Source: an uncultured Chloroflexia bacterium (GTDB lineage: Bacteria; Chloroflexota; Limnocylindria; Limnocylindrales; CSP1-4). Taken from it: a stretch of 64,000 nucleotides of DNA. The DNA is taken from contig CAWFBS010000016.1 in the NCBI GenBank assembly GCA_963814115.1, positions 256,431 through 320,430 on the forward strand. The letters run 5' to 3'. Positions 34,973 through 64,000 of this stretch are shown in pieces. The notes beneath the pieces were generated by a model. It searched no databases. It was not told the DNA's origin and saw only the letters and a list, made by a program, of their open reading frames with translations. Positions within the stretch are counted from its first letter, which is position 1, and each line of letters starts with the position of its first letter. The translations under genes and the position numbers were made by a program.

Positions 34973-37060
34973 TCAACCGGCGGCAGCGCCCGAGGCACCC
35001 CCGAGCTGGCTCTGGGTGGCGTCGATCGCGGCGAGGTAGCTCCATCGTGTCGCGTCCGCCCGCTCCGTGGCCGCCGGCGATTCGCCGAGGCGTCGAGCGT
35101 AGCCTAGCAGCGCCTCGCGGAGGGCGTCCTCGTCCGCACCGGTGGCCATGCCCAGCAGCCGCCGGACGCATTGCTGGACGTCCACGGGAGCGGGCGGCGC
35201 GATCGCCCGGAGGACCTTGGCACTTGCAGTCGGTTCCACCTGCTCTTCGGCGTAGAAGAGCTGCTCGTGGAGCTTCTCTCCTGGTCGCAGGCCGACCGTT
35301 TCCATCGGCTGGCTCTCGGGGTCGCGCCCGGCGAGCCGAACCAGGTCGCGGGCGAGATCAAGGACCCGCACGGGGTCGCCCATGTCGAGCACGAACAGGT
35401 CGCCGGCGCCGTCCCGGCCGAGCGCGGCCGCGTCAAGGATGAGCCACGCGGCCTCGGGGATGGTCATGAAGAAGCGGGTCATCTCTGGGTGCGTGATCGT
35501 GAGCGGCTCGCCGTTCTCCAGCTGCTCCTGGAAGATCGGCACGACACTCCCGGTGGAGCCAAGGACGTTTCCGAAGCGGACCGACACGTACGGACGGCCG
35601 GTGCGCCGGGCGGCGTCCGCCACCAGCATCTCGGCGATGCGCTTGCTGGCTCCCATGACGCTTGACGGACGGACGGCCTTGTCGGTGGACACGAACACGA
35701 ACCGGCCAACGCCCGCAGCCGCGGCTGCGTCGAGCATCACTAGTGTGCCGCCGATGTTCACGTGTGTCGCGTCGGACGGGTGTGTCTCCATCATCGGCAC
35801 GTGCTTGTAGGCCGCCGCGTGGAAGATCACGCCGGGGGCTTCGGACGCGACCAGCCGCTCCATCGTGGCCCGGCTGGCCACGTTCGCCAGGTGAACGCGC
35901 AGCTCGCCGCCCCCCTTTCCATGGTTCCTCCGGGTCTCGAGGTCCCGCTCCACCAGGTACAGCGGACTCTCCGCCCGGTCCACGAGGATCAGGCGGCGCG
36001 GCCTGAGCGCGAACACCTGGCGGGCGAGCTCCGACCCGATGGAGCCGCCGCCACCGGTGATGAGCACCGTCTGCTCCCGGATGATCTCCTCGACACCAGC
36101 CGCGTGCTGGGTGACCATGGGCCGGCGGAGGAGGTCTTCGACACGCACCTTACGGACGCGGTTCGCATCCACGGTTCCGTCCAGCAGATCGGTCATCGAG
36201 GGGACGGTCCGCACCTCGAGCCCCAGGGCCAGCGCGGCATCGACGGCACGTCGGACAGCGCTGCCCGCGGCGCTCGGCATCGTGATGAGCAAGGTCTTGG
36301 CTCCCGTCTTGGCTACAGCCCGGTTCATCGACTCGACGCCGCCGAAGACGGGGATTCCATCGACCACGCCACCGATCAGCGAGGGATCGTCGTCGAGGAA
36401 CCCGACCGGCACCACACCGGAGCGGGGATCCCGTCGGGCCGAGCGAGCAAGGAGAACGCCGGTTTGTCCTGCACCGTAGAGGAGCGTCGCACGCTGGTCG
36501 GTCGCGGCGACGTGGCTCGGATCCGCCCGCCGCTCGGATGCCGCCCGGATGCCGAAGCGAACTCCGCCAAGGATCGCGACGCTCAGGAGCAACTCTGCCA
36601 GCCAGAACGACCGTGGGAACCCGTCTGCCCACGACGCTCTGCCGACTGAACACGCCCCGTAGAAGATGACCAGGGTGATGAGCGATCCGAGCGCAACGGC
36701 CGCGACGATCCGCTCGAGGTCGGGCACGCTTGCGAACCGCCAGCGGCGGCTGTACAAGCCGAGCCTGATGTTGGTGATCGTGCGGACCGCGAGGAGCAGG
36801 CCGACCACCACGGGGAACGCCGGAACCAAGACCGGCCCCGTGATCCGGTCGAAGCGAAGCGCGAGCGCGACATAGGCAGCGATGACAATTCCGACCAGGT
36901 CGATCGCCAGGAGGTACCGGCCGCGGATCTCGGTCGTGAGCCGGCGGATCGAGGGATATGGGGGCGCGAGGGACGCGTCCTCGATCAACGCGGTCCGCGC
37001 CGGCGCGGAAGGGTGGAAGGCGGGAACGAATCTGGGCCGGGACAGGCGGCGGACGGCCAA
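34973..37060 (-). CDS. Membrane-bound nucleotide-sugar 4,6-dehydratase (CapD/WbpM/PglF family)
   Basis: N-terminal transmembrane helices, then a Rossmann fold (LITGGGGSIGSELARQ), then a catalytic region (HAAAYKHVPMME...FVFVSTDKAV). The exact start is uncertain. Confidence 0.8.
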   Translation of the reverse strand: MAVRRLSRPRFVPAFHPSAPARTALIEDASLAPPYPSIRRLTTEIRGRYLLAIDLVGIVIAAYVALALRFDRITGPVLVPAFPVVVGLLLAVRTITNIRLGLYSRRWRFASVPDLERIVAAVALGSLITLVIFYGACSVGRASWADGFPRSFWLAELLLSVAILGGVRFGIRAASERRADPSHVAATDQRATLLYGAGQTGVLLARSARRDPRSGVVPVGFLDDDPSLIGGVVDGIPVFGGVESMNRAVAKTGAKTLLITMPSAAGSAVRRAVDAALALGLEVRTVPSMTDLLDGTVDANRVRKVRVEDLLRRPMVTQHAAGVEEIIREQTVLITGGGGSIGSELARQVFALRPRRLILVDRAESPLYLVERDLETRRNHGKGGGELRVHLANVASRATMERLVASEAPGVIFHAAAYKHVPMMETHPSDATHVNIGGTLVMLDAAAAAGVGRFVFVSTDKAVRPSSVMGASKRIAEMLVADAARRTGRPYVSVRFGNVLGSTGSVVPIFQEQLENGEPLTITHPEMTRFFMTIPEAAWLILDAAALGRDGAGDLFVLDMGDPVRVLDLARDLVRLAGRDPESQPMETVGLRPGEKLHEQLFYAEEQVEPTASAKVLRAIAPPAPVDVQQCVRRLLGMATGADEDALREALLGYARRLGESPAATERADATRWSYLAAIDATQSQLGGASGAAAG

Positions 37061-40975: not shown

Positions 40976-42207
40976 ACAGGGCGTCGCGTGCCCAGGGCGC
41001 CCGGGGAGCCTCGGTCGACGATCGGCTTCGCGTCGCGTTCCTGGCACCGTCCCTTCATCCGGGAGGCGCCGAACGTCAGATGCTGATCCTTGCGGCGGCG
41101 TTGCCGAAGGCCACGTTCGATCTCCGCTTTCTCCTTCTCTCGGAGCCGGGCGATCTTGCCGCCGAAGCAGCAGCCCTTGGCGTGCCGGTCCACGTCCTGG
41201 GCCTCCGGCGCGAGACGTGCCGGACGTTCACCCCTCGCTGCCTCGGGGATGCTGCACGCGCTCTCCGCGCATACCGGGGGCTCACCCGGGACGTCGACAT
41301 CGTCGATGCGTGGTTGGTGCCTGCCTACACATTTGCCGGGTTGGTCCAGCCTCTCGCTCGGGTCCCCGTTCTCCTGGCCGGCCGCCGATCGACCGTCGAT
41401 GTCAACCGCACGCGGACGTGGTACCGGGAGGCAGCAGGGCGTCTCGCCATGCGTGGCATCGACGCGATCGTCGCCAATTCACAGGCCGCCGCGAACAACG
41501 CAATTGCCGTCGAGCGGATCGATCCGGCGCGCATCCACGTGATTCGGAACGCGGCGGTCCCGATCGAGACGACAGACGCCGAGCGGCTTCGACTGCGGCA
41601 CGCGTGGGGCTTCTTACCGCAGGACGTCGTGGTGGGATGCGTCGGCAACTTCAAGCCGGGCAAGGGCCACCTCGCGCTCGTCGAGGTGGCAGGTCGCCTC
41701 CGAGATCAGTGCCCGAGCCTCCGCTGGTGCTTCGTCGGCGATGGCCCGCTGCGACCAGAGCTCGAGGACGACATTCGCCGCCTTGGCCTCGACACGATCG
41801 TCCGGCTCCATTCCGGGGAACCGGATGCTCGCCGGGTCTACGGTGCCTTCGACATCGACGTCCAGGCGTCCGACAGCGAGGGACTTCCGAATGCCGTCCT
41901 CGAGGCGGCTTCGGCAGGCCTTCCGATCGTCGCCACGGCCGTTGGCGGGACCGCGGAGGTCTTGACCGATGGTGCGGATGGGCTCCTTGTGCCGAAGGGC
42001 GACCGACCCGCGCTTCTGGCGGCGATCGGGCGTCTGGCGGAGGACCGCGAGCTGCGCCATCGCCTCGGCAGGGCGGCCCAGGCGAGGGCAATGGACTTCT
42101 CGCCCGCGCGCCTGGCCGAGCAGACCGGAGAGCTCTACCTGCGACTCGCCCGCGGGGTCTCAGGCGCGGTCGCCGCCCTGGAGCCTCCACTCGGCAGGCA
42201 GTCTTGA
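40972..42207 (+). CDS. GT1 (GT4-like) glycosyltransferase
   Basis: ASDSEGLPNAVLEAASAGLPIVAT is the E-x7-E-containing C-terminal domain. The start overlaps the upstream stop as ATGA. Confidence 0.75.
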   Translation: MNRASRAQGARGASVDDRLRVAFLAPSLHPGGAERQMLILAAALPKATFDLRFLLLSEPGDLAAEAAALGVPVHVLGLRRETCRTFTPRCLGDAARALRAYRGLTRDVDIVDAWLVPAYTFAGLVQPLARVPVLLAGRRSTVDVNRTRTWYREAAGRLAMRGIDAIVANSQAAANNAIAVERIDPARIHVIRNAAVPIETTDAERLRLRHAWGFLPQDVVVGCVGNFKPGKGHLALVEVAGRLRDQCPSLRWCFVGDGPLRPELEDDIRRLGLDTIVRLHSGEPDARRVYGAFDIDVQASDSEGLPNAVLEAASAGLPIVATAVGGTAEVLTDGADGLLVPKGDRPALLAAIGRLAEDRELRHRLGRAAQARAMDFSPARLAEQTGELYLRLARGVSGAVAALEPPLGRQS

Positions 42208-43070
42208 TTGAGCAGCAACGCCGGTAAGCCCCGCGCCGGCGTCGAGAACCGTGATGCTGCCCGGCTTGGCCACCATGCCCAGCTCGACACCCGCCTGGGC
42301 CAGTCCAGGCTCGGTGGCGAACAGGAAGAGCTGTCGTCCAGCCCGGACGGCTCGCGCCAGGAGAGCCGCCACCGCAGGCGACGGATTCTGGCCCTCGATC
42401 CACAGGACCCGATCGGAGGCGGCGGCGCGCTCCACCAGACAGTGACAGCCGGCCGCGACCAGTACCTCGACCGGCAGCGGCCGGTCCAGGTACTGTGAGA
42501 TCCACACATCGAGCTTCGGATACACGACGTAGGCGCCCGTGCCTTCAGCTTGCCAGCGCCTGTGGGCGCGGCGCAGCTCATCGACCGTCAACGTGCTTGG
42601 CTCGACCGCGCTGGCCGTGGTGGGGGGGAGGTTTCCGCGTTCGACGCCACGTACCAGGTCGGGACTTCCAGGCACCCGGCCGCGACCAGGCGCCGTCGAC
42701 TGGCATTCTCTCGGGTCACGAAGGCCGTCAGCACGGTCCCGCCGCGGTCGGCGACGAGCCGCCTGGACTCTTCGATCACCAGGGAGAACGCACCGTGCCC
42801 GCGGGCCTCGGGGAGCGTCCACGAACCGGTCATGATCCCGACGAGGAGCACCTCGTCCCGGTAGCGCACCGTCCGATATGAGACCGCCGAACCCGCCACG
42901 ATCCTGCCCTGATCCCGCAGGACCATGAGGTCGGCGACGCGGGCACCCACCTGGCGCTCGAAGTCCCACGAGTACATCGAGCGGTCTCCCCAGCGGCCGA
43001 AGCTGCGGTTCAGGCCGGCGAGGTAGTCATCCTCCAGCCCGCGCGGGTTCACCTCGATGTCCAGAACCAT
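42160..43070 (-). CDS. GNAT-fold acyltransferase (FemAB/CelD-like, Acetyltransf_6), with an apparent frameshift near 42640
   Basis: The N-terminal 160 aa in one frame (..IVAGSAVSYRTVRYRDEVLLVGIMTGSWTLPEARGHGAFS..) continue in another frame (..STLTVDELRRAHRRWQAEG..). Confidence 0.45.
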
Positions 43071-51066: not shown

Positions 51067-51236
51067 CCTCTTGTCGGCGCGCCTTCGGGCCGCCCTGCCG
51101 GATCTTCGTCGTTACCGCCGCCGGTCGCTCGGGGAGCCCCGGCCACAGTGGCGTCCGCTCCTCACGTTATCTCATCGACGGTCGAATCCGCCCCAAGGCC
51201 GAGCGCCGGGTCGCCGCCCTCCCCGCCGCCCGGCGC

Positions 51237-52458: not shown

Positions 52459-52639
52459 GAATGCGCCATCAACACCCCTCTGCCGTCGAATTGGCGTCAG
52501 GGCCCGTACGGGAGCACCGAGGTTCAGCTACCACACCTTGGCCGACCAATGGACCGGACGATCTCCGCCGCGAGCCACCCGGACTCGTCCTTCCTGAGCG
52601 GACGTTCATGTCGTTGGGATCATGGCCGTCGCCCGGCGC

Positions 52640-54160
52640 TCAGAGCGCGATGTTGTTGCCGCTGACCGTCCGGGTGCCCGTGGTTCCCGTGTCGCGGAGG
52701 AGCGCCGCGCCGCTGGCGGTGGGCTGGCGGTTGCCCGTGACGGTGAGATTCTCGACGTTGGCGAGGTTGATGACGGCGGTGCTCGAGGGGCGGGTATCGT
52801 CGTCGGTGGTGGTGTTGTTCGTGATGACCACGTTCGTCTTGCGGTTGCTCTTGTCGGCCCGGATCCCGAGGCCGCCCAGGCCGTCGGCGTTGCCGTTGTT
52901 GGCGGTCGCCGCGCCGATGTGGACCCGGTTCCCGTCGATCGTGAGGCCGTCCATGGTCGCCGTCGCGAGGACGGCGTCCTGGGGGTTGGCCGCCACGAAC
53001 CAGCTCGTGAGCGTCTGGCCCCAGCCGTAGTTCGTGACGTCGTTGTTCGAGATGAGCACGTTCTGGAAGCCGCCGCCGTAGCCGGGCTCGCCGTTGGTCC
53101 CTGGCTGGGTGAAGTCCGGCTCGAGGTCGATGGCGCTGTCCACGGAGTCGTTGATGGCGTTGTGGACGATCTGCACGTTCCGCGCGGCGACGATGCCGAT
53201 GCCCATCTCGCCGCCCCGGATCACCGAGTCGTGGATCGAGATGTTGGTCGGCCAGGTGGTCCCGCCGTCGGCGCTGAGCAACGGGCCGAAGCCGCGCAGG
53301 CGGTCCCAGGTGACGTGGTCGAACTCGATGAACGAGCAGCCCGCGCGGATGACGGCCGCGTTCATGTGCTCGTTGACGGCCGAGCCCGCCGCCGTCGTGC
53401 CGGTGGCCGGGTTGCCCCCGTCGACGGCGAAGCCGCGGACCAGGATGTGGGTGCTGTTCTGGAGGAAGAACGCGGAGGAGAAGTTGGTGGCCCCGCTGGT
53501 CCGCAGCTGGAGCGTGCTGCCGGTCCCGATCAGGGACAGGCCGGTCCGCCCGGTGAGGTTCAGACCGGCATCGCCGCCGAGCTGGTAGCACGAGCCGGCC
53601 GGGAAGATCAGCGTGCTCCCGTTCTGCTGCGCCGCGATCCAGGCGTTGAGCGCCGGGCTCGCGTTCGTCGCGCAGGTCGCGTCGATCGAGGCGGGCACGG
53701 TGGATCGGACGATCACCGAGATCCGAACGTGTGCCGTCGTGGCAGGTGGGCTGATCCGGGAGTTGGCCCGGTACAGCGCTACGGCGGCGGCCGTGATGTA
53801 GCCGAAGGTAACGGTGTGGCTCCCGGCGGTCGCTTCACGAGGGATCCGAAGTTGGGCTACGAACCGACCGGCGCGGTCCACCGAGATGAAACGGAGGTGC
53901 GCGGTCGCCGCGTCCCAGCGAGCCTCGAGGATCGTGGTCGCCCTGAAGCCGGTCCCGCTCATCGTGACGAGCAGTCCGGGCTGCGCCTCGCCCTGCACTG
54001 TGACCCGGTAGGTGGTCGCGTCGACGTCGGGGGCGGCAAGCGCGGCGAATGCCGGGGTGGCGAGGACAACCGCCAGCAGCACGACGCGGACAGGTCGTCC
54101 TAGCCTGCCGCGACGGGCAGTCGTCCATCGGCCGACCTCGGTCGCCGTCCGGTCCACCAT
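52640..54160 (-). CDS. Secreted right-handed parallel beta-helix (pectin-lyase-fold) protein, copy 2 (N-terminal Ig-like domain)
   Basis: Signal peptide. Beta-helix repeats (IHDSVIRGGEMGIGIVAARNVQIVHNAINDSVDSAIDLE...). The C-terminal roughly 400 aa are near-identical to copy 3. Confidence 0.7.
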   Translation of the reverse strand: MVDRTATEVGRWTTARRGRLGRPVRVVLLAVVLATPAFAALAAPDVDATTYRVTVQGEAQPGLLVTMSGTGFRATTILEARWDAATAHLRFISVDRAGRFVAQLRIPREATAGSHTVTFGYITAAAVALYRANSRISPPATTAHVRISVIVRSTVPASIDATCATNASPALNAWIAAQQNGSTLIFPAGSCYQLGGDAGLNLTGRTGLSLIGTGSTLQLRTSGATNFSSAFFLQNSTHILVRGFAVDGGNPATGTTAAGSAVNEHMNAAVIRAGCSFIEFDHVTWDRLRGFGPLLSADGGTTWPTNISIHDSVIRGGEMGIGIVAARNVQIVHNAINDSVDSAIDLEPDFTQPGTNGEPGYGGGFQNVLISNNDVTNYGWGQTLTSWFVAANPQDAVLATATMDGLTIDGNRVHIGAATANNGNADGLGGLGIRADKSNRKTNVVITNNTTTDDDTRPSSTAVINLANVENLTVTGNRQPTASGAALLRDTGTTGTRTVSGNNIAL

Positions 54161-54389
54161 GCTCAGCCACCCTCAACTGATGGGCCGCCTTCTGGTCCCG
54201 AGTACCGCGACCGCACGGCCGCGCAAAACGGACTCGGAGACTGTGGGGCCGGCCCGGGGCCGGCCCATTGCAGTAGCCAACCGCCCGAGTCTACCGGGGA
54301 ATGCGAGGAATGGCGACCCGAGGGTCTGACGCAATCTCCGGCACCACGCGCTCACATCGAGGCCTGCCGCCCTCCCCGCCGCCCGGCGC

Positions 54390-56144
54390 TCAGAGCGCGA
54401 TGTTGTTGCCGCTGACCGTCCGGGTGCCCGTGGTTCCCGTGTCGCGGAGGAGCGCCGCGCCGCTGGCGGTGGGCTGGCGGTTGCCCGTGACGGTGAGATT
54501 CTCGACGTTGGCGAGGTTGATGACGGCGGTGCTCGAGGGGCGGGTATCGTCGTCGGTGGTGGTGTTGTTCGTGATGACCACGTTCGTCTTGCGGTTGCTC
54601 TTGTCGGCCCGGATCCCGAGGCCGCCCAGGCCGTCGGCGTTGCCGTTGTTGGCGGTCGCCGCGCCGATGTGGACCCGGTTCCCGTCGATCGTGAGGCCGT
54701 CCATGGTCGCCGTCGCGAGGACGGCGTCCTGGGGGTTGGCCGCCACGAACCAGCTCGTGAGCGTCTGGCCCCAGCCGTAGTTCGTGACGTCGTTGTTCGA
54801 GATGAGCACGTTCTGGAAGCCGCCGCCGGCGGATTGGCTCGAGTCCGGCTCGAGGTCGATGGCGCTGTCCACGGAGTCGTTGATGGCGTTGTGGACGATC
54901 TGCACGTTCCGCGCGGCGACGATGCCGATGCCCATCTCGCCGCCCCGGATCACCGAGTCGTGGATCGAGATGTTGGTCGGCCAGGTGGTCCCGCCGTCGG
55001 CGCTGAGCAACGGGCCGAAGCCGCGCAGGCGGTCCCAGGTGACGTGGTCGAACTCGATGAACGAGCAGCCCGCGCGGATGACGGCCGCGTTCATGTGCTC
55101 GTTGACGGCCGAGCCCGCCGCCGTCGTGCCGGTGGCCGGGTTGCCCCCGTCGACGGCGAAGCCGCGGACCAGGATGTGGGTGCTGTTCTGGAGGAAGAAC
55201 GCGGAGGAGAAGTTGGTGGCCCCGCTGGTCCGCAGCTGGAGCGTGCTGCCGGTCCCGATCAGGGACAGGCCGGTCCGCCCGGTGAGGTTCAGACCGGCAT
55301 CGCCGCCGAGCTGGTAGCACGAGCCGGCCGGGAAGATCAGCGTGCTCCCGTTCTGCTGCGCCGCGATCCAGGCGTTGAGCGCCGGGCTCGCGTTCGTCGC
55401 GCAGGTCGCGTCGATCGAGGCGGGCACGGTGACGCCGACGGGCGACGGCGACGGGCTCGGGCTGGCCGACGGCGACGGGCTCGGGCTGGGCGTCGCCGAG
55501 GGGCTCGGGCTCGGCGTCGCCGAGGGGCTCGGGCTGGGCGTCGCCGAGGGGCTCGGGCTGAGCGACGGCGCGAGCGTGGTGAGCGTGAAGTCAGCGGATA
55601 CCGACGTATACCCGGCTGCATCCCGGGACTTCACGCGATAGTGATACAAGGCGCCCGCATCGAGGCCGGCCACCTGTTGCGTGTGAAGAGAGGATGTGAG
55701 GGAGAGGTCTGGAGCCGTCATGCTGCCGTAACCACTGGTGAGGCCGTATTCCACCTGCCCCGTGGTGGGCTCGTTCACGCTCCACGAGATCTGGGCGCTC
55801 TTCTGGGTAATCGCGCTTGCCCTGACGGCGCTGATCGTGGGACCAAACGGCGTTGGCGTCGGCGTGGGGGTGGGCTTCGGAGTCCGGGTAGGCTGCGGGC
55901 TTGGCGCGGCGGTTGGTTTCGGGTGCTGGTGGCCACCCCGACCAGCCGACGGGCCCCACTGTGCCGCGATGGCCTGATTGGGGGATCTGGACGCGGCGTT
56001 CGTCGCCACAAAGGGGATCGCAAGGGCAATGATCCCGGTGATCATGACTCCGGTCGCGATCCAGTCGCGCGCCCGGCGGCGGCTTGCGGTGGAAGGGGTC
56101 TCGGACGCAAGACTGTCCGTCCAGCGTGTTCCGTTCCAGAACAT
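54390..56144 (-). CDS. Membrane-anchored beta-helix protein, copy 3 (N-terminal transmembrane helix, FN3 domain, (SPSPSATP)n linker, beta-helix)
   Basis: FN3-like ISWSVNEPTTGQVEYG...YHYRVKSRDAAGYTS, then SPSPSATPSPSPSATPSPSPSATPSPSPSPSASPSPSPSP, then a beta-helix identical to copy 2. Confidence 0.7.
   Translation of the reverse strand: MFWNGTRWTDSLASETPSTASRRRARDWIATGVMITGIIALAIPFVATNAASRSPNQAIAAQWGPSAGRGGHQHPKPTAAPSPQPTRTPKPTPTPTPTPFGPTISAVRASAITQKSAQISWSVNEPTTGQVEYGLTSGYGSMTAPDLSLTSSLHTQQVAGLDAGALYHYRVKSRDAAGYTSVSADFTLTTLAPSLSPSPSATPSPSPSATPSPSPSATPSPSPSPSASPSPSPSPVGVTVPASIDATCATNASPALNAWIAAQQNGSTLIFPAGSCYQLGGDAGLNLTGRTGLSLIGTGSTLQLRTSGATNFSSAFFLQNSTHILVRGFAVDGGNPATGTTAAGSAVNEHMNAAVIRAGCSFIEFDHVTWDRLRGFGPLLSADGGTTWPTNISIHDSVIRGGEMGIGIVAARNVQIVHNAINDSVDSAIDLEPDSSQSAGGGFQNVLISNNDVTNYGWGQTLTSWFVAANPQDAVLATATMDGLTIDGNRVHIGAATANNGNADGLGGLGIRADKSNRKTNVVITNNTTTDDDTRPSSTAVINLANVENLTVTGNRQPTASGAALLRDTGTTGTRTVSGNNIAL
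55437..55565 (-). repeat. Ser/Pro/Thr/Ala-rich repeat linker ((SPSPSATP)n) within beta-helix copy 3
   Basis: A ggcgacggcgacgggctcgggctg-type 24-bp repeat in the DNA. The same linker occurs in copy 1. Confidence 0.5.
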
Positions 56145-56528
56145 GACGCGGCTCCGTTCGGCAACCCGGCTGACTCGGAGAGTCCCGTGGCTTTGCGGCC
56201 CCGCCTCGCGACGGGTGTGCTATTTCGTGGATGCCGGCCGGATGAAGACAGGTCAGCCAGCGCGGCGCAGACACCAGCCAGGGTACGTCAGTGAGCTCCG
56301 ATGGACTACAGGGCGATTCGTACCGTGCTCAATGAGTCGGTCACATCACCAGCGGGCCCACAGGGTCCCCGCAGCACACTCGACCCCCCTCCGAATCCGT
56401 GTTCAAATGCCCGGGCGGGCCTTCGCGCGTGCGCGTGCGCACCACTTCGCGGGGCGATTGACCAGGCCGCCTGTGGGCCTGGGCGTCGTCGACCCGTCCG
56501 CCGCCGACCGGACTCCCAGGGCTCCGCG

Positions 56529-57551
56529 CTACGGTCGCCGGTACAACGGGAAGTACCCGCTCCGGTCAGCCGGATCGAGGGCTGGGTCGACGGCCTCGAC
56601 AAGGCGCCGGTACGCCTGCTCATCGATGACGATCCGGAGCGTGCTGAACGGGTGGTGAAGCGGCGAGAAGCCATCCTTGAAGTGCAGGAGCGAGTCACTG
56701 CCGGCGCCGACGCCCCCCCCGAGGTGCAGGTACCGATCGCCCCGGGCTTTCGCCCAGCCAATCACGAACTGCATCATCAGCTTCGTCGGCTGGGCGTTCA
56801 TTGCCGCGTCGCTCGTCCCCGAGAGATGGTATTGCACGATGCGACAGGTCTCCGCGTACAGGCCCGCCGCGGCAATCTCGCCTTCCCGCTCGACTAGGCA
56901 CAGGTGGAGCCGATCGCGGAGCGCGTCACGCAACCCGTCGAAGTACGCATCGTCGAAGAAGTAGAACTGGTTCGCGGAGCGACGTTCCATCGTCGCCCGG
57001 TACAGTTCCTTGAACGAATTGAGGTGGGTCCACGTCTCGTCCATCCGGGCGACATACCCGAGTCGCACAGCCCGCTTGATGCCACGCCGATGATCGACGC
57101 GCATCTGTTCCCGCAAGACTTCGCCAGGCAGGGAAAGGTCGACGCTGACCGTGTCACCGTGGTACACGACCGTGCCGATCCCGGAAGGGGGCACCGGGTT
57201 GAGCAGTGGGTGAAGGCGTACGAAGGCCGACACCACACCGGCTGCGCGGAGCACCTGGACGCCGGCGGCAAGGGCTTCGCGAAGAAAGGTCGCATCCCCG
57301 GTTCCGCGCACCAGGGGTCCCGGATACCCGTACGGCGACGTCGCGTCGAGGCCGCCGCCGGGAATGCTCCGAGTGATGAGCGGGAGCAGCATCGCGTTGC
57401 CGTTGGCGGCGACCAACAGTCCCCGCGGCTCCCCACGTTCCTGCGCCGCGCACAGGGCGACGTAGGGCGGGAGGTGGTAGAAGTCGTGGTCCGTCTCCTC
57501 CAGGAAGGATGTCCACGCCGGTGCGTTGACATCCAGAAGCTCACCCTTCAT
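56529..57551 (-). CDS. FemAB-family / GNAT-fold aminoacyl- or acyl-transferase (Acetyltransf_6)
   Basis: 340 aa with a two-GNAT-lobe organisation: ...NAMLLPLITRSIPGGGLDATSPYGYPGP... and LHLGGGVGAGSDSLLHFKDGFS. Confidence 0.55.
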   Translation of the reverse strand: MKGELLDVNAPAWTSFLEETDHDFYHLPPYVALCAAQERGEPRGLLVAANGNAMLLPLITRSIPGGGLDATSPYGYPGPLVRGTGDATFLREALAAGVQVLRAAGVVSAFVRLHPLLNPVPPSGIGTVVYHGDTVSVDLSLPGEVLREQMRVDHRRGIKRAVRLGYVARMDETWTHLNSFKELYRATMERRSANQFYFFDDAYFDGLRDALRDRLHLCLVEREGEIAAAGLYAETCRIVQYHLSGTSDAAMNAQPTKLMMQFVIGWAKARGDRYLHLGGGVGAGSDSLLHFKDGFSPLHHPFSTLRIVIDEQAYRRLVEAVDPALDPADRSGYFPLYRRP

Positions 57552-57590
57552 CGCAGGTCGGGCAAAGGGAGTGGGCAGGGCGGCGATTGG

Positions 57591-58538
57591 TCATCGAGTG
57601 CCTCGCCCAGACGATTCACGGATGGCGCGGAAGAAGAGCGATGGCCCGGGAGTCACCGAGGCGAGGCGCGATTGGAGTGGTCGCTCCAATGCCGCGAGGA
57701 TCCCCGGGGGCACGCGGCGGCTTACGACGGGAAGTCGGAAGATCGACGCCGTGCGTGTCGTCTCGACCCGGAAGCCGGCCGAGCGCAGCCACGTTCGGAC
57801 GTCGGCGGGCGCATGGTCGAAATCCGTTCCGGGGCTCCTCCACTGCGGCTTCGATCGAAGCTCGTCGGACCGGGCGGAGGGCCTGCGTCTGCGGATCACA
57901 TCGGGGAGAAGGTAGACGCCGTCGTTGCGCTCCGAACCCCGCGTGAACGGCGACCGTTCGTGCCGTCGCATCAGGTAGGCAGCAATCGCCTTGAGGTTGC
58001 GCTTGTTCGCGGACTCCAGCACGAGCACGCCGTCCGGGCGGAGCACGCGGGCGAGCTCTCGAATTGCGGGCCTCGGGTCCTGGAAATGGTGCAGGACCCG
58101 GATGCACACGGCCGTGTCGAAGGTGGCATCCGGGAACGGGAGCGAGAATGCGTCACCCGATACGAACTGGTACCGGTCATCGCCCTCGAGCCGTTCTCGG
58201 GCCGCCTGGAGCATCGTCTCGGAGGCATCCAGCAGTACGACCTCGCGATAGCCTCGATACTCGCCGGCCAGGCGCCCGAAGCCGGCGCCGACCTCGATCA
58301 CGCGCACGCCTACCGCGGGCATCAACGCGCGGAGCGCAAGGCGGTCACAGGCGTCCTCGTAGACACGGACCGGCCAGAAGGCGTCGCGGTACGAGAGATC
58401 GGCGAATGCGCGCAACGTCTTCTGGAGTCCCGGATCGGCCCTCGTCGCCGGCGCTCCGCGTGGCTCGCCGTTCGGGTCTCGACCCAGCGGATCTGACGCC
58501 GGAGTCGTTACCAGTTCGGCGTTCGGTGGGATGCTCAC
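57591..58538 (-). CDS. Class I SAM-dependent methyltransferase
   Basis: VIEVGAGFGRL (motif I), DASETML, and AFSLPFPDATFDTAVCIRVLHH. Confidence 0.75.
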   Translation of the reverse strand: MSIPPNAELVTTPASDPLGRDPNGEPRGAPATRADPGLQKTLRAFADLSYRDAFWPVRVYEDACDRLALRALMPAVGVRVIEVGAGFGRLAGEYRGYREVVLLDASETMLQAARERLEGDDRYQFVSGDAFSLPFPDATFDTAVCIRVLHHFQDPRPAIRELARVLRPDGVLVLESANKRNLKAIAAYLMRRHERSPFTRGSERNDGVYLLPDVIRRRRPSARSDELRSKPQWRSPGTDFDHAPADVRTWLRSAGFRVETTRTASIFRLPVVSRRVPPGILAALERPLQSRLASVTPGPSLFFRAIRESSGRGTR

Positions 58539-58753
58539 GGTTGGTTCACGTGACGGCGCATGCCGTCATCCTATCGGTCGCCACGGGCTCGTGGGAGGGC
58601 GAGCCCGACGATGGGGCCCCATCGAGCGTGCGTGGTGCTGCAAGGCACCATTGCCTCTGGCTAGCCCGCAAGTACCGGGAGCCGCGTGGTAACGTGCGAG
58701 GCTCGCCCGGGTCCCCAGGGGCACCTGCCCGCCGCGCCAATGTCGGAGACCTC

Positions 58754-59884
58754 ATGACTTCGTTGCCCGAGCCTCATCGATGGATCGTGCCGCTGGCGAG
58801 GCCGGACATCGGCGACCGCGAGATCGACCTCGTAACCCAGGTCCTGCGCAGCGACGTTCTCGCGATGGGCCAGTTCACCAAGCGCTTCGAAGCTGGCATC
58901 GCGTCCTTGGCCGGCCGCCACGAAGGGGTTGCATGCTCAAGCGGGACGGCCGGGCTGCATCTCGGCGTCGACGCCATGGGGATCGGCGAGGGTGACGAGG
59001 TCATCACCACGCCCTTCAGCTTCGTCGCCTCCTCCAATTGCCTCCTGTACGAGCGCGCCGTCCCGCGCTTCGTCGACATCGAGGAGGACAGCCTTGGGAT
59101 CGACCCCGATCTAGTCGACAACGCCGCAACGAAGCGGACGCGGGCGGTCCTGCCGGTCCACGTGTTTGGCCGTCCGTGCCGGATCGAGGCGATCGAGGCG
59201 CTCGCTCGGCGGCGCGGTTGGTCGATCATCGAGGACGCCTGTGAGGGGCTCGGCTCGTCGGTCGGCGGACGGCCGCTGGGCAGCTTCGGCGACGTCGCCG
59301 TCTTCGCTTTCTACCCGAACAAGCAGATCACGACGGGCGAGGGCGGGATGGTCGTCACCGACGATCCCGCAGTCGCCGAGACGATGCGCAGCCTCCGCAA
59401 CCAGGGACGGGATGCGGACGGCACCTGGCTTCGTCACGTTCGCCTAGGTTACAATTACCGGCTCGACGAGATGTCGGCTGCCGTCGGCGTGGCACAGCTC
59501 GAGCGGATCGACGAGCTGCGCGCCGGGCGGGCCCGCGTGGTGGCCGTCTACGAGTCGGTGCTCGCCGACCAGGACTGGCTTCGCCTCCCCCGCGCTGGGG
59601 CCGGGGAGACGGTCGACTGGTTCGTCTACGTGGTGCGACTCCATCCCGAGATCGACCGTGACCGGGTGATCGGCCGACTGGCCGCGCTCGGAGTTCCCTC
59701 GCGTCCGTACTTCTCGCCGATCCACCTCCAGCCCTTCTATCGCTCGATGTTCGGGTTCAAGCTGGGTGACTTCCCGGTGACCGAGAGGATCGCCGCGTCC
59801 ACGCTTGCGCTTCCGTTCTCGAGCCGGCTGACGGACGCGGATGTTGGGTTCGTGGCCGACAGCCTGCGGGAGGCGGTCGAATGA
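58754..59884 (+). CDS. DegT/DnrJ/EryC1/StrS-family PLP-dependent sugar aminotransferase (PglE-like)
   Basis: GTAGLHLG, FSFVASSN, and the Lys region FAFYPNKQITTGEGGMVVTDD. Confidence 0.85.
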   Translation: MTSLPEPHRWIVPLARPDIGDREIDLVTQVLRSDVLAMGQFTKRFEAGIASLAGRHEGVACSSGTAGLHLGVDAMGIGEGDEVITTPFSFVASSNCLLYERAVPRFVDIEEDSLGIDPDLVDNAATKRTRAVLPVHVFGRPCRIEAIEALARRRGWSIIEDACEGLGSSVGGRPLGSFGDVAVFAFYPNKQITTGEGGMVVTDDPAVAETMRSLRNQGRDADGTWLRHVRLGYNYRLDEMSAAVGVAQLERIDELRAGRARVVAVYESVLADQDWLRLPRAGAGETVDWFVYVVRLHPEIDRDRVIGRLAALGVPSRPYFSPIHLQPFYRSMFGFKLGDFPVTERIAASTLALPFSSRLTDADVGFVADSLREAVE

Positions 59885-61071
59885 CAGCGGCCGCGCGCCC
59901 GCCCGCGGTCGTCGTTTCAGGTCACACGATGGCGCTCGCCGTGGTGCGAGCCCTCGGCGAGGCGGGCGTGCCGGTCGCGGTCCTCCACTACGACGCGCGT
60001 GATATGGCCCAGGCCTCGAGATACGTGGTCGCCAACGTCCGGATCCCCCATCCGCTGCGCGACGAGGAAGGGTTCATCCAGGCGCTGTTGGATCAGGGTG
60101 AGCAGCTCGGGGGAGGAATCCTGATACCGGCGTCCGACGAGAGCACGGTCGCCGTCTCGCGCCACAAGGGGCGCCTGCAGGCGCGCTACATCGTCGCCTG
60201 TCCTGAGTGGGAGATCACCGAGCGGTTCATCGACAAGGCGAAGACCCACGCGCTGGCTCGAGCGAACGAGGTCCCGACTCCGCGGACGGTGGTTCCGTCC
60301 GGCCCGGAGGATCTCGCGGACCAGGCGGCCCAGATCGGCTTCCCCCTCCTGCTCAAGCCGGCGGAGAGCCACCTGTTCTTCGAGCATTTCAAGCGGAAGA
60401 TGTTCCGCGTAGAGACGCTTGCGGAGCTCAGGAGCTGCTTCCTGAGCTCACGCGACGCCGGGCTGACGGTCGTCCTGCAGGAGATCATTCCCGGCCCGGA
60501 CTCGTCGGTCGTCAACTACAACGCCTACACGTCGGACGGCCAGGCCCTGGTCGAGTTCACGGCTCGCCAGCTCAGGAAGGCACCGCCCGCCATGGGCTCG
60601 CCCCGCGTGGCGATCAGCGAGTGGATCCCCGAAGTGGTCGAACCTGGCCGGAGGATCCTGGCGGCCATGGGCTTCTACGGCTTCGCGTGCACGGAATTCA
60701 AGCTGGACGAGCGTGACGGCCGCTACAAGCTCCTCGAGGTCAACGGGCGCCACAATCTCTCGGGGATGCTTGCAGTCCGATGCGGAGTCAACTTCCCGCT
60801 GATCCAGTACCTGCACCTCTCGGAGGGTGTGACACCATTAGGGGGAACATATCGGAGTGGAATGTACTGGATCGACGTGTTCCGGGACGTTGGATACAGC
60901 CTCGCCTACCTGCGCCGCGAGCAATTCAGCGCATCGGATTACGTGGCCCCGTACGCCCGGCGGCACTGCGACGCCATCCTTGATCGCGGCGACATGGGCC
61001 CCTTCTGGACCCGCTTGCGGTACCTCGTCCGGAACGCCCGATCGACGGCACGAGTCACGTCAGCCGGCTGA
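59881..61071 (+). CDS. ATP-grasp-domain protein (carboxylate-amine ligase-like)
   Basis: The overall organisation is a pre-ATP-grasp Rossmann fold plus an ATP-grasp (IGFPLLLKPAESHLFFEHFKRKMFRV...EFKLDERDGRYKLLEVNGR). The start overlaps the DegT stop. Confidence 0.6.
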   Translation: MTAAARPPAVVVSGHTMALAVVRALGEAGVPVAVLHYDARDMAQASRYVVANVRIPHPLRDEEGFIQALLDQGEQLGGGILIPASDESTVAVSRHKGRLQARYIVACPEWEITERFIDKAKTHALARANEVPTPRTVVPSGPEDLADQAAQIGFPLLLKPAESHLFFEHFKRKMFRVETLAELRSCFLSSRDAGLTVVLQEIIPGPDSSVVNYNAYTSDGQALVEFTARQLRKAPPAMGSPRVAISEWIPEVVEPGRRILAAMGFYGFACTEFKLDERDGRYKLLEVNGRHNLSGMLAVRCGVNFPLIQYLHLSEGVTPLGGTYRSGMYWIDVFRDVGYSLAYLRREQFSASDYVAPYARRHCDAILDRGDMGPFWTRLRYLVRNARSTARVTSAG

Positions 61072-61154
61072 ACACGGGGAACCCAGCAGTCTGGTCCATT
61101 CGAGAGCACGTCGCGGCCTGTTGTGCCGTCTTAGGGAGACGAGGAGCTATATCG

Positions 61155-62042
61155 ATGGAGTCGCGCCGGATCGCATGCAACGCGTGCGGAGCCGACAACT
61201 TCGCGCCGATCTCGACGGTCGACAGCTGGACGATCGGACGTTGCCGGGCATGCGGCCTGGTGTTCGTGAACCCCGCGCCGTTCTTCGGCGCGACCGACGA
61301 GTTCTCGGAGATGTCGCGTGCGTTCGAGTACACGGAGTACATGCACCAGCCCATCAGCCCTGAGATCCTCGCCTTCGAACGTCAGCAACTCCTCGCCAAT
61401 GCCGGTGAGGTGGCCCGCCTGAACGGGAGCAGCGCGGGCCCCGGGCGACCGATGCGGTTTCTCGACATCGGTTGCGGGTCGGGAGCCTCGGTCGGGGCTG
61501 CGTCGGGCCTGGGCTGGGACGCGATCGGGATCGACATCGATCCCCAGCTGATCGCGGAAGGGAGAGCCCAGCTGAAGGTGGACCTGCGGTGCGTGCCCAT
61601 CCTCGAGTGTGGCCTCCCGCCCGGCGAGTTCGACTTCATCAAGCTCCGCGACGTCATCGAGCATGTGCCCAATCCACTCGAGGTCCTCGTCAAAGTCCGG
61701 GAGCTCCTGGCGCCTGGCGGCAACGTCCTCCTCGTCACGCCCAACGAACGCAGCCTGGCAACCCAGGCACGCGTCGTCCTCCGACGCAGGCGCACGCTCG
61801 TCGCAACCGTGCCACCGCCCCACCATCTCCACTCGTTCGGAACGGAGACGCTCGTGCGGACGCTGCACCGTGCGGGTCTCCGCCCGGACACGACGTTCAC
61901 GACGACGCCAACGGACGCCCGCTACGTGACGTCGAGCAATATGGCTCGGGCGAGCCGTCTGACTCTCGTTCGGCCCCTTTGGGCCGCCGGCCGGGCACTG
62001 GGGATGGGGGCCGTGCTGGTGAGCTGGGCGCGGGCGCAGTAA
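61155..62042 (+). CDS. SAM-dependent methyltransferase with an N-terminal CxxC...CxxC zinc ribbon
   Basis: CNACGADN...CRACGLVFVNP, then LDIGCGSGAS, then a methyltransferase fold. Confidence 0.7.
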   Translation: MESRRIACNACGADNFAPISTVDSWTIGRCRACGLVFVNPAPFFGATDEFSEMSRAFEYTEYMHQPISPEILAFERQQLLANAGEVARLNGSSAGPGRPMRFLDIGCGSGASVGAASGLGWDAIGIDIDPQLIAEGRAQLKVDLRCVPILECGLPPGEFDFIKLRDVIEHVPNPLEVLVKVRELLAPGGNVLLVTPNERSLATQARVVLRRRRTLVATVPPPHHLHSFGTETLVRTLHRAGLRPDTTFTTTPTDARYVTSSNMARASRLTLVRPLWAAGRALGMGAVLVSWARAQ

Positions 62043-62056
62043 CGGGATCGCCCGAC

Positions 62057-62746
62057 ATGGGCAGCCACGCGAGTCGAAGACGGACCCGGCTCGGTATCAA
62101 GCGGCTCATCGACGTCGCGGGCGCGGCGACGGTCGCTGTCGTCCTGTTGCCCGTGGTGGTCTGGGTGGCGCTGGGCGTGGCCCTCACCGAGGGGTTCCCG
62201 ATCCTCTTCCGCCAGGAGCGGCCCGGTCTCCGCGGCAAGTCGTTCACGATCTTCAAGTTCCGGACAATGCGCTCTCCCCGACCGGACGAAGTGTGGTACC
62301 TCACGGATGACCAACGCGTCACCCGGTTCGGTCGGTTCCTCCGCACGACGAGCCTCGACGAGCTGCCGGAACTTTGGAACGTCCTGCGCGGGGAGATGAG
62401 CCTCGTGGGACCGCGTCCGCTCCTGACCGAGTATTTGGCGACCTACGCGCCTGACGAGCGGCGGCGACACGACATGCGGCCGGGTATCACGGGCTGGACC
62501 GCCGTGAACGGACGCAATGTGCTCCAGTTCCGTGACCGGCTCGAGCTCGACCTCTGGTACGTCGACCATTGGAGCCTCGGGCTGGACATGCAGATCCTGG
62601 GAATGACCGCGATCCAGGTGCTGCGGCGAACCAACGTCTCGGCTACCGAGGACAAAGGCCTGGGGTTTCCGCTGCCCGGGGTCGAGACCGGCGCGGCCGG
62701 CCAGCCCGATACGCTTGGCGATCCGACCGACGGTGCCAAGTCCTAG
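62057..62746 (+). CDS. Small bacterial sugar transferase (initiating phosphoglycosyltransferase, PglC/WbaP C-terminal-like)
   Basis: A single N-terminal membrane helix. IFKFRTM...DELPELWNVLRGEMSLVGPRP is the Bac_transf signature. Confidence 0.8.
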   Translation: MGSHASRRRTRLGIKRLIDVAGAATVAVVLLPVVVWVALGVALTEGFPILFRQERPGLRGKSFTIFKFRTMRSPRPDEVWYLTDDQRVTRFGRFLRTTSLDELPELWNVLRGEMSLVGPRPLLTEYLATYAPDERRRHDMRPGITGWTAVNGRNVLQFRDRLELDLWYVDHWSLGLDMQILGMTAIQVLRRTNVSATEDKGLGFPLPGVETGAAGQPDTLGDPTDGAKS

Positions 62747-63279
62747 CGGGCACGCGGCGCGGCTGCTCGTGGAAACGAGCTCACGGTCCCTCGGTCGGCC
62801 GCAGCGTTCCCCACCTACGGGTCGTCGAGCACGGCCTGACGTTCGGAAGGCCGGCTGCTACGCATTCCTGCCGATTGAGCCGGGTTGTGCCCAGCACCTA
62901 GGCTGTGCGTCGTCGTCGCCCGCCGTTCAGGTTTCGGTGCAGGATGCCGCTCGATGTGTTCTACGAATGGGGCCGGCTTCTCGCCGCGATGGTCGCCGGC
63001 TTCGCGCTCAGCGCCTCTGTCGGGCTGGTGGTCGCATCGCTCGCAGGTGACCCGCGCCGCTGCCAACAGAGCCGGAGGAGTTCGGGTTCGCGGGCTTCGT
63101 GGGACGGACCCACGGCGCCGGACCCGCGGCGCCGGCCGCCGGCCGGACGCCGTCCAAGAGCCTCGCCTGGGTGACTGACCCGGTCGCCTGGCGCGCCCGT
63201 CCGTGCTCTGACCTGCCGCCCGCCAGGTTGCACGTTGGACCGCGGAGGCACTCAAAGCGGCGACCTGGGCCGCGTTCGG

Positions 63280-64000
63280 TCAGGAGCTCAGGTCGCCCAG
63301 TCGGTCGAGGAGCTCGTCGGCGACAGCCCGGTAGTCGTTGGCCACGAGGCTGGTTGAAGCGTACTGGGTGATCGGCAGCTGGAACGCCGGCGCCTCGGCG
63401 ACCCGGATCGCCTCGCGAACGGCGTGCTCGAGCACGACCGCGCCGAACTGCGCGCGGAGGCGCGAGACGACCTCGCGCGTGTGGACGGTGGCGTTCACGC
63501 GGCAGGCGACGATGCCAAGCAGGCTCATGTTCGGGTTGACCTGGCGTCGAGCACGTTCGATCGAGGCGATGACGCTTGTCACCCCCGGGATCGCGAGCGC
63601 GTGGGCTTCGACCGGGATCACGATGTGGTCGCTGGCGACAAGTGGAGCCAGCGACAGGTACCCGAGTGTCGGTGGCGTGTCGACGAGGATGAGGTCCCAA
63701 TAGTCGGGCAGCCGACGGAACGCGCGCACGATCGCGAGTCCCGTGTTGTTCTCGCTCGCGTCGCCTGACGGCACCAAGCTCGGGCTGGTCGGGACGAGGT
63801 CCACGCCGCGAGCCGTCGACGACTTGACGAGCTCCGAAACACGGATCCCGCCCGCCGAGAACTCGACCAGCCCGATGGGCGACTCGCGGCCGCCGAGCCA
63901 CCTCGTGGCCGACCCCTGCGGATCGAGATCGATTACGAGGATGCGAAGGCCGCGCTCGGCAAGCGCGGCCGCGAAGCTTACCGTGGTCGTTGTCTTGCCG
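63280..64000 (-). CDS. ParA/MinD-family P-loop ATPase (partial; the 5' end lies beyond the window)
   Basis: GKTTTTVSFAAALAERGLRILVIDLDPQG near the window edge; LILVDTPPTLGYLSLAP... The M printed at 63804 in the ORF track is an internal Val. Confidence 0.7.
   Translation of the reverse strand, partial: GKTTTTVSFAAALAERGLRILVIDLDPQGSATRWLGGRESPIGLVEFSAGGIRVSELVKSSTARGVDLVPTSPSLVPSGDASENNTGLAIVRAFRRLPDYWDLILVDTPPTLGYLSLAPLVASDHIVIPVEAHALAIPGVTSVIASIERARRQVNPNMSLLGIVACRVNATVHTREVVSRLRAQFGAVVLEHAVREAIRVAEAPAFQLPITQYASTSLVANDYRAVADELLDRLGDLSS

Follow-up and report, generated by a model that had tools for sequence, protein, structure and literature searches.

The stretch of DNA considered here, referred to as the window, is 64,000 nucleotides long and derives from an uncultured Chloroflexia bacterium. 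It contains a polysaccharide cluster of the Wzx/Wzy type that spans 34.9–62.7 kb; upstream of ~34 kb, family scans show the window to be filled by housekeeping genes. Our subject is a sub-cluster of six genes, 56529–62746, which is proposed to tailor an amino sugar of this polysaccharide. Because the window is ~70% G+C, genes were called by third-position GC and then assigned by family scans (Pfam and NCBIfam). The six genes are arranged in two divergent units. One consists of a FemX-like transferase and a methyltransferase, MT1; the other is DegT–ATP-grasp–MT2zn–PGT, where MT2zn is a zinc-ribbon methyltransferase and PGT is a phosphoglycosyltransferase. The layout is exactly as described in a first-pass annotation of the same DNA, the coordinates of which also cover the PGT gene, left unnamed in its text. 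The features of the sub-cluster, and a dehydratase gene located elsewhere in the polysaccharide cluster, are as follows.

56529..57551, minus strand: FemX-like double-GNAT protein, 340 residues; Pfam FemAB 36.8 bits (cutoff 24) and Acetyltransf_6 36.1 bits (cutoff 22)
57591..58538, minus strand: MT1, class I S-adenosylmethionine (SAM) methyltransferase, 315 residues; Methyltransf_11, 3e-25
58539..58753: divergent intergenic spacer of 215 bp between the MT1/FemX-like unit and the DegT operon, from the gene coordinates
58754..59884, plus strand: DegT-family pyridoxal phosphate (PLP) sugar aminotransferase, 376 residues; DegT_DnrJ_EryC1 (PF01041), E 2e-110
59881..61071, plus strand: ATP-grasp carboxylate-amine ligase, COG3919-like, 396 residues; weak Pfam/NCBIfam ATP-grasp matches
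61155..62042, plus strand: MT2zn, zinc-ribbon SAM methyltransferase, 295 residues; Methyltransf_23, 3e-22
62057..62746, plus strand: small monotopic phosphoglycosyltransferase (PGT), PglC-like, 229 residues; Bac_transf, 3e-63
34973..37060, minus strand: PglF/WbpM-type membrane-anchored UDP-N-acetylglucosamine (UDP-GlcNAc) 4,6-dehydratase; Polysacc_synt_2, 5e-98, plus CoA_binding_3

The spacer presumably holds the promoters of both units. No sigma-70 consensus match is found in its 215 bp, and a promoter and terminator scan of 56200–63400 gave nothing exceeding shuffled expectation.

Family assignments support a bacillosamine-type pathway around the sub-cluster, formed by a dehydratase with the PglF signature, DegT, and a PglC-like PGT. 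In the dehydratase, STDKA...MGASK fits the signature TDKxnMx3K, which is taken from PMC8987622 (TDK...MxxxK). The PGT displays a DE dyad (LDELP) and a PRP motif within SLDELPELWNVLRGEMSLVGPRP. The DegT protein has the PLP-lysine motif FYPNKQ. Among the NCBIfam models, it fits PseC best (297 bits versus a cutoff of 423) and reaches no equivalog cutoff. Its best PDB relatives are perosamine synthetase (3e-73) and ArnB, both C4 aminotransferases, and PglE (1o61) is matched only at E 2e-39. DegT is a predicted C4 aminotransferase.

This frame has no left-handed β-helix (LbH) acetyltransferase of the PglD type. Pfam scans of ~50 open reading frames (ORFs) across the window find no Hexapep/LbH family, and a hexad-periodicity heuristic finds no LbH protein in the window, whereas it detects LbH genes in related loci. 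The observation in the first-pass annotation that no such enzyme is visible is thus borne out. Its wording that PglD is “replaced” is correct in that PglD is absent from the window, but too strict. PglD-like LbH proteins are present in some relatives (L008, P0227, L066, and L067; related loci carry L numbers and related proteins P numbers), sister loci have an acetyltransferase domain on the FemX-like protein or an LbH gene nearby, and in relatives the ATP-grasp gene may itself be swapped or absent, as detailed below.

The overlap of the ATP-grasp ATG with the DegT TGA, an ATGA at 59881–59884 read directly from the sequence, indicates that the ATP-grasp gene is translationally coupled to DegT, as had been noticed at first pass. 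The two genes also overlap or abut in L002, L008, L011, L012, and L013. The ATP-grasp protein matches the NCBIfam models PRK06849 (9e-13) and PRK12767, “carbamoyl phosphate synthase-like” (2e-10, below cutoff), and its best PDB match by sequence is 2pn1 (7e-6). The AlphaFold2 model, with a predicted local distance difference test (pLDDT) score of 86, has a standard ATP-grasp fold without a close solved relative. Foldseek returns generic matches to biotin carboxylases, L-amino-acid ligases, and PurK (E 1e-16 to 1e-18), and these relatives therefore give no clue to the substrate. Residues K119, K159, Q200-E201, E272, N288, and R290 are invariant throughout the family; that is, the nucleotide/Mg and catalytic residues are intact.

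The family is large, with 2916 representatives (50% identity) at E<=1e-30. Its members are found fused to Polysacc_deac_1, Formyl_trans_N, a Wzx flippase, GT2, WecG, and GH113 (with a dockerin), and in the wider family two or three ATP-grasp modules may follow one another in tandem. (The fusion and tandem proteins are P0242, P0244, P0245, P0283, P0314, P0382, P0246, P0331, and P0336.) A Bac_transf domain is present in none of the 10 fusion proteins scanned. Plasmid relatives with 25–30% identity adjoin PIG-L or polysaccharide deacetylases and glycosyltransferases, and Bacillaceae plasmid homologues (26% identity) have a PIG-L/GT4 context. The fusions, the glycan-locus neighbors, and the plasmid deacetylase and glycosyltransferase contexts together indicate a family role in glycan modification, most plausibly the acylation of sugar amines. 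Its place in glycan loci supports the view that the window ligase is not a glutathionylspermidine or housekeeping enzyme. The first-pass annotation had named two findings that would speak against it, namely assignment to families unrelated to sugar modification, such as glutathionylspermidine or peptidoglycan enzymes, and an LbH acetyltransferase nearby; its interpretation, which is plausible, withstands both.

Among 731 matches to the ATP-grasp protein, some are labeled “D-aspartate ligase” or COG3919 by the Joint Genome Institute (JGI). The protein is 24% identical (E 2e-23) to a carboxylate-amine ligase of Latilactobacillus curvatus that is adjacent to a racemase and is probably a true D-aspartate ligase. 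D-aspartate ligase reportedly acylates an amine on a UDP-linked precursor. Orthology of the window protein to this enzyme was considered and rejected, given the 24% identity, the polysaccharide context, and the lack of a racemase in the window. The low identity and the absent racemase and mur context mark the JGI label as a family-level over-annotation.

Two plasmid settings of ATP-grasp relatives are recorded here. Plasmids of Bacillus, Priestia, and Cytobacillus (L053, L054, and L055) share a conserved operon consisting of a PIG-L deacetylase, a GT4, an ATP-grasp protein annotated as “carbamoyl-phosphate synthase,” and a phosphotransferase; on the Priestia plasmid, it lies near spore-coat genes. 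The operon’s logic resembles that of mycothiol and bacillithiol synthesis: glycosylate, de-N-acetylate, and ligate a carboxylate to the sugar amine. On a plasmid of Azospirillum ramasamyi (L058, 4696–7143), a gene for a GNAT of 414 residues immediately precedes a 30%-identical ATP-grasp gene; this GNAT has no BLAST similarity to the FemX-like protein of the window.

The FemX-like protein is related at the sequence level to FemX only, with ~18% identity. The NCBIfam scores are low, 30 bits for the FemX equivalog (cutoff 500) and 18 bits for pepcterm_femAB (cutoff 260). Its AlphaFold2 model, with a pLDDT of 92.8, has the double-GNAT fold, and the top 27 Foldseek matches in the PDB are all aminoacyl-tRNA-dependent transferases. 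They include FemX of Weissella viridescens (1ne9; template modeling (TM) score 0.71), Sba18 and Sbb17 (~0.65), FemA, and the synthase domain of MprF. CoA-dependent tandem GNATs rank behind, at TM 0.3–0.44. The Sba18 and Sbb17 structures were solved with the amino-sugar substrate streptothrisamine. In a profile alignment, F291-K292 falls on the catalytic F-K305 of FemX, the role of K305 being described in PMC12945691, and K292 is invariant in 30 sequences. On the strength of the model, 56529–57551 is considered to encode a putative FemX-type, aminoacyl-tRNA-dependent aminoacyl transferase. Many close homologues (60–69% identity) are ~500 residues long, with an N-terminal RimI-like acetyltransferase domain, and one carries an N-terminal LbH domain of the PglD/NeuD type.

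The Acetyltransf_6 match of the FemX-like protein is generic, and it would also suit a more ordinary product. That is, the GNAT may be an acetyl-CoA-dependent N-acetyltransferase like PseH or WecD, GNAT-fold enzymes that do take the place of LbH N-acetyltransferases in other sugar pathways, so that a di-N-acetyl sugar is made and the ATP-grasp protein and methyltransferases are unrelated or act elsewhere. The FemAB-like HfsK of Caulobacter exopolysaccharide (EPS) synthesis, which has no defined donor, is in keeping with this option. We hold it to be improbable, as the 27 nearest structural neighbors set the protein apart from the CoA-dependent GNATs, the catalytic Lys of FemX is conserved, and the cassette is conserved across phyla. 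Moreover, relatives add a separate acetyltransferase domain, which would be redundant if the FemX-like protein were itself an acetyltransferase.

To follow the cassette across genomes, one genome per GTDB species was scanned, seeded on the ATP-grasp protein, and its partners were sought by tblastn with the window proteins within 10 kb. The scan returned 47 loci, in Chloroflexota, Gamma- and Deltaproteobacteria, Cyanobacteria, Acidobacteria, Bacteroidota, and others; five loci without partners are <6 kb long. The closest ATP-grasp proteins (60–76% identity) are those of Chloroflexota, “Ca. Limnocylindrales.” The partners found near ATP-grasp are a small PGT in 26 of the 47 loci, DegT in 22, MT2zn in 21, the FemX-like GNAT in 16, and PglF in 13. 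PGT, DegT, MT2zn, and FemX-like genes are found all together in 12. Both DegT and PGT accompany ATP-grasp in 22 of the 47 genomes, in several phyla; the co-occurrence of DegT with ATP-grasp was a check that the first-pass annotation had proposed.

MT1, which is the first gene of its divergent two-gene unit in the window, adjoins the FemX-like gene in L002, L006, L012, L013, and L068. MT2zn is the most constant neighbor of ATP-grasp and is immediately 3′ of it in 21 of the 47 loci. Its N-terminal CxxC-x18-CxxC has four Cys residues that are invariant in 24 of 24 homologues. This motif and the Pfam matches agree with the earlier reading of a FemAB-family GNAT beside two SAM methyltransferases, one of them with a zinc ribbon. 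We considered whether MT1 and the acetyltransferase domain of the fused FemX-like proteins are alternative caps, each excluding the other; this was rejected, since L006, L013, and L052 carry both, and the acetyltransferase modules of sister cassettes do not simply replace methyltransferases.

Sister cassettes keep DegT, PGT, and the FemX-like gene, and the carboxylate-activating partner varies. The COG3919-type ATP-grasp is found in the window and in L002–L015. In L023 and L034, the place of MT2zn is taken by a GNAT-like family of ~290 residues, members of which adjoin PGT in L003 and L062; these proteins give a marginal Acetyltransf_1 match and no NCBIfam match. Some Anaerolineales and Bacteroidota have the gene order ATP-grasp, methyltransferase, FemX-like, methyltransferase inside a different polysaccharide locus that lacks DegT. 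Four Flavobacteriaceae loci (L025, L029, L046, and L049) have no window cassette genes within 10 kb of ATP-grasp. In one of these, L049 of Pricia antarctica DSM 23421, which is the sole isolate represented in the 47 loci, the neighbors are a fucosidase, a GH109, a GH3, and a 3-keto-disaccharide hydrolase, with no biosynthetic partners.

Three further features of the sister loci deserve mention. A gene for a proline-dehydrogenase-like protein (Pro_dh) lies inside the cassettes of L003 (11116–12024), L062 (7138–8004), and L067 (7186–8052), overlapping the fused acetyltransferase/FemX-like gene in the latter two, and may be a clue to where these lineages obtain the acyl group. A PHP-domain protein is paired with a PRK12767-type ATP-grasp in L061 (5405–6295), L067 (649–1554), and L064 (8264–9993), the last on Sinorhizobium meliloti pSymB, where the pair adjoins cysDNQ-like sulfate-activation and polysaccharide genes. 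In L068 (4556–5727), three short ORFs of 59, 205, and 106 residues lie between DegT and MT2zn, where ATP-grasp is expected; they are probably a frameshifted ATP-grasp gene in a long-read assembly.

We propose that the sub-cluster tailors the lipid-linked sugar with which the Wzx/Wzy polysaccharide begins, with the ATP-grasp enzyme acylating N4, the FemX-like enzyme extending the substituent, and the methyltransferases methylating it; the balance for and against this proposal we judge to be even. The steps would be as follows. By family assignment, the PglF-type dehydratase and DegT would convert UDP-GlcNAc, via a 4-keto-6-deoxy-N-acetylhexosamine (HexNAc), to UDP-4-amino-4,6-dideoxy-HexNAc. 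The coupled ATP-grasp enzyme would then acylate the 4-amino group, taking a carboxylate through an acyl phosphate to the amide. The carboxylate may be an amino acid, a dicarboxylic acid, or a 2-oxo acid; models for the step are the ligase Pyl of Bacillus cereus, the donor of which is 2-oxoglutarate, and PglB2 of Neisseria, with its glycerate-derived group. Next, drawing on aminoacyl-tRNA, the FemX-like enzyme would attach an aminoacyl group to an amine in the N4 substituent. Methyl groups, such as N-methyl caps, would be placed on the side chain or on the sugar by the two SAM methyltransferases. Finally, the PglC-like PGT, again by family assignment, would move the finished sugar phosphate onto undecaprenyl phosphate. 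The sugar predicted to result is of the bacillosamine type, and its N4 bears a short peptide-like group that is methylated.

This proposal is favored by the ATGA coupling of DegT and ATP-grasp and by the precedents of Pat/Pyl and PglB2. It is also supported by the PglF/DegT/PGT frame without an LbH enzyme, by co-occurrence in the 47 loci, and by the glycan-domain fusions, including that to Polysacc_deac_1, as a deacetylase makes sugar amines. The probable D-aspartate ligase as a 24%-identical relative, the FemX-like fold with its Lys, and the precedent of the aminoacyl transferase Orf11 lend further support.

Several findings weigh on the other side. ATP-grasp homologues that are ~50% identical exist without DegT or PGT. 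The Anaerolineales locus L051, a polysaccharide locus of another kind without DegT, combines ATP-grasp with methyltransferases and a FemX-like gene, and the Pricia ATP-grasp (L049, 9989–11176), which is 52% identical, stands alone among glycoside hydrolases. L061 and L067 carry a PRK12767/PylC-like ATP-grasp (284 bits versus a cutoff of 218) that is 23% identical to that of the window; L066 has instead an AMP-binding ligase, the gene of which overlaps the FemX-like gene; and L062 is without ATP-grasp or another activating enzyme within 8 kb. Lastly, some relatives carry PglD-like or RimI-like acetyltransferase modules, which suggests that N4 may be acetylated there and that the ligase may act elsewhere.

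The order of the two amide-forming steps could be the reverse of the one we propose. The FemX-like enzyme would then acylate the sugar 4-amine from aminoacyl-tRNA, as Orf11 does for its own substrate, and the ATP-grasp enzyme would extend or cap the new α-amine with a second carboxylate; sister cassettes would use a fused RimI- or PglD-like acetyltransferase, a different ATP-grasp, or an AMP-binding ligase for this extending or capping step. Such an order fits the Chloroflexota cassettes, in which the FemX-like gene is paired with DegT and PGT more consistently than ATP-grasp is (L062, L061, L066, and L067). The N-terminal acetyltransferase fused to many of the 60–69% homologues fits a free amine that needs a cap, tandem ATP-grasp fusions suggest chain extension, and the structural neighbors Sba18 and Sbb17 were solved, as mentioned, with an amino-sugar substrate. 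However, DegT is coupled to ATP-grasp, and the FemX-like gene lies in the divergent unit; Pat/Pyl and PglB2 place ATP-grasp directly on N4; and the comparison of gene constancy is biased, because ATP-grasp is always present in the proteobacterial and cyanobacterial loci as a result of sampling seeded on it. We regard this reverse order as unlikely, though it is the chief competitor. As far as sequence goes, either of the two amide-forming enzymes may be the one that acts on N4.

L051 bears on a further option as well. Its ATP-grasp/methyltransferase/FemX-like module is accompanied by a UDP-GlcNAc 2-epimerase and no DegT, as might be expected if ATP-grasp amidates a carboxylate elsewhere in the glycan, such as that of a uronic acid, with an amine or amino acid, leaving the 4-amine to the FemX-like enzyme or to methylation. 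Cj1438, an amide ligase of the Campylobacter jejuni capsule, amidates a uronic acid in this manner. The TviC-like gene at 45583–46524 and the UDP-sugar dehydrogenases beside the related cassettes L067 and L068 are consistent with such a role. However, family scans find in the window no UDP-sugar 6-dehydrogenase (UDPG_MGDP_dh) that would supply a uronic acid, the ATGA coupling to DegT is conserved, and the deacetylase and formyltransferase fusions indicate sugar amines over sugar carboxylates. We consider amidation of a uronate very unlikely here.

Returning to the proposed acylation of N4 by ATP-grasp, a broader claim may be ventured, tentatively and with somewhat more doubt than confidence. 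It is that a cassette conserved in several phyla assembles a short peptide-like chain, capped by methyl groups, on the 4-amine of the priming sugar of a surface polysaccharide, by means of an ATP-grasp ligase and a FemX-like enzyme drawing on aminoacyl-tRNA, and that the acetyl and methyl caps vary by lineage. The first-pass prediction of an N-acylated, methylated amino sugar is partly supported, by the bacillosamine frame, the glycan-linked ATP-grasp, and the FemX-type GNAT.

The remaining genes of the polysaccharide cluster that were assigned by Pfam/NCBIfam are as follows.

37901–39490, plus strand: chain-length regulator/AAA_31
39491–40975, plus strand: Wzy_C polymerase
40693–42207, plus strand: GT4
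42160..43070, minus strand: weak GNAT with an apparent frameshift; Acetyltransf_9, below cutoff
43070–44029, minus strand: DUF2334 deacetylase-like protein
44148–45863, minus strand: GT4
45583–46524, plus strand: TviC/GalE-like epimerase (UDP-GlcNAcA 4-epimerase-like)
46531–48147, plus strand: MurJ-type flippase

The gene at 42160–43070 had been taken at first pass for a second FemAB-like GNAT, a reading that does not hold: the only match is the sub-threshold one to Acetyltransf_9 (E 2e-4 to 6e-4), and the gene is not FemAB-like. By codon-position GC, the reading frame switches near 42650–42700, so that the N-terminal GNAT domain and the C-terminal ~150 residues, a second domain, are read in different frames; the gene is a pseudogene, or there is a real frameshift or a fault in the assembly. 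No similarity is found to the RimI-like or ~290-residue GNAT modules of the sister cassettes, and membership of this gene in the tailoring module is not supported.

Other genes of the window are noted in passing. A ParA/AAA_31 ATPase gene (63280–63999, minus strand) lies immediately downstream of PGT, a position conserved in L001, L002, and L068, and a gene for a GGDEF-EAL protein (6521–8512, plus strand) is ~26 kb upstream of the cluster. A protein of 570 residues encoded at 49354–51066 (minus strand) has a GINT1_N domain (E 1e-31), which is named for the eukaryotic glucosamine inositolphosphorylceramide transferase and is unusual in a bacterial polysaccharide cluster. Between it and the FemX-like gene, 51172–56144 (minus strand) holds three large ORFs of 428, 506, and 584 residues, with a third-position GC of 0.91–0.93 and an unusually low first-position GC. 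Beyond a weak Pur_ac_phosph_N match, they match no Pfam or NCBIfam family. At the equivalent position, L002 encodes proteins of similar size with weak Beta_helix matches. The three ORFs may encode secreted or surface proteins linked to the polysaccharide.

The cassette is of interest because bacillosamine-type and related amino sugars vary in their N-acyl groups, and antigenicity and surface chemistry are shaped by this variation. To our knowledge, the enzymes for most amino-acid-acylated O-antigen sugars have yet to be named. The cassette represents a widely distributed candidate gene set, with ATP-grasp, FemX-like, and methyltransferase genes beside DegT and PGT, and it flags small PGTs whose substrate is likely an unusual N4-acylated sugar; UDP-4-amino sugars are already accessible chemoenzymatically. 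It also offers a possible function for the very common FemAB-like GNATs of EPS loci, such as HfsK. If the proposal is true, the Pyl/PglB2 principle would extend to Chloroflexota, Proteobacteria, Cyanobacteria, and Acidobacteria; if the broader claim is true, tRNA-dependent aminoacylation, outside peptidoglycan and antibiotics, would be seen for the first time in the synthesis of nucleotide- or lipid-linked surface-glycan sugars. In the literature searched, no description of the combined cassette of ATP-grasp, FemX-like, and methyltransferase genes was found. The earlier view that the locus makes an unusual decoration is plausible, and the cassette is conserved and uncharacterized; its principle, an ATP-grasp in the place of PglD, is already known from Pat/Pyl and PglB2 and is not new.

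The comparison with known systems may begin with the canonical di-N-acetylbacillosamine (diNAcBac) pathway. The window shares its PglF-type dehydratase and its small PGT with the DE dyad, and lacks the PglD LbH N-acetyltransferase. D-aspartate ligase of the Asl type (COG3919), which acts in Lys-D-Asp peptidoglycan, belongs to the same ATP-grasp clade as the window ligase, which accounts for the JGI labels, and by analogy the two would have the same kind of acceptor, an amine on a UDP-linked precursor; the window ligase differs in having no racemase or mur context. By description, the FemX-like protein is like HfsK, as both are FemAB-related GNATs in an EPS context. HfsK is tied genetically to the holdfast EPS of Caulobacter (PMC5362036), and its suspected acceptor is a deacetylase-generated or other sugar amine. 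With FemX, Orf11, Sba18, and Sbb17, the FemX-like protein shares the double-GNAT fold and the catalytic Lys. FemX works on a precursor linked to UDP; Orf11 uses Gly-tRNA to aminoacylate the amine of an amino sugar, streptothrisamine (PMC12945691). Unlike those of FemX and Orf11, the context of the window protein is a surface polysaccharide and not peptidoglycan or an antibiotic.

In Neisseria PglB2, ATP-grasp and PGT are domains of one protein, and the sugar obtained is glyceramido-acetamido-trideoxyhexose (GATDH) and not diNAcBac (PMC11130364, PMC6959607). Here, as in the window, an ATP-grasp module is present where the PglD-type module is absent, and in PglB2 the N4 acyl group is altered. 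In contrast to PglB2, the window has ATP-grasp and PGT as separate genes, with a methyltransferase gene between them and with ATP-grasp coupled to the aminotransferase; no FemX-like enzyme or methyltransferases are involved in the PglB2 system.

The final comparison is with the UDP-yelosamine pathway of B. cereus ATCC 14579, with Pat (Bc5273) and Pyl (Bc5272), due to Hwang et al. 2014 as cited in PMC11626204. Pyl reportedly ligates 2-oxoglutarate to UDP-4-amino-FucNAc in an ATP/Mg-dependent reaction, and the small PGT Q814Z7 is encoded directly downstream in the Pat/Pyl operon. The hosts differ, Chloroflexota for the window versus Bacillota for Pat/Pyl, and the window has in addition MT2zn between ligase and PGT and the divergent MT1/FemX-like unit. 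Otherwise the two arrangements are much alike: both have a 4,6-dehydratase in the cluster and the order C4 aminotransferase, ATP-grasp ligase, small PGT, with the ligase in the place of an acetyltransferase. The ligases are likened by gene order and size. Pyl (BC5272, NP_834935.1), which is annotated as a carbamoylphosphate synthase, is 41.9 kDa, similar in size to the 396-residue ATP-grasp ligase of the window.

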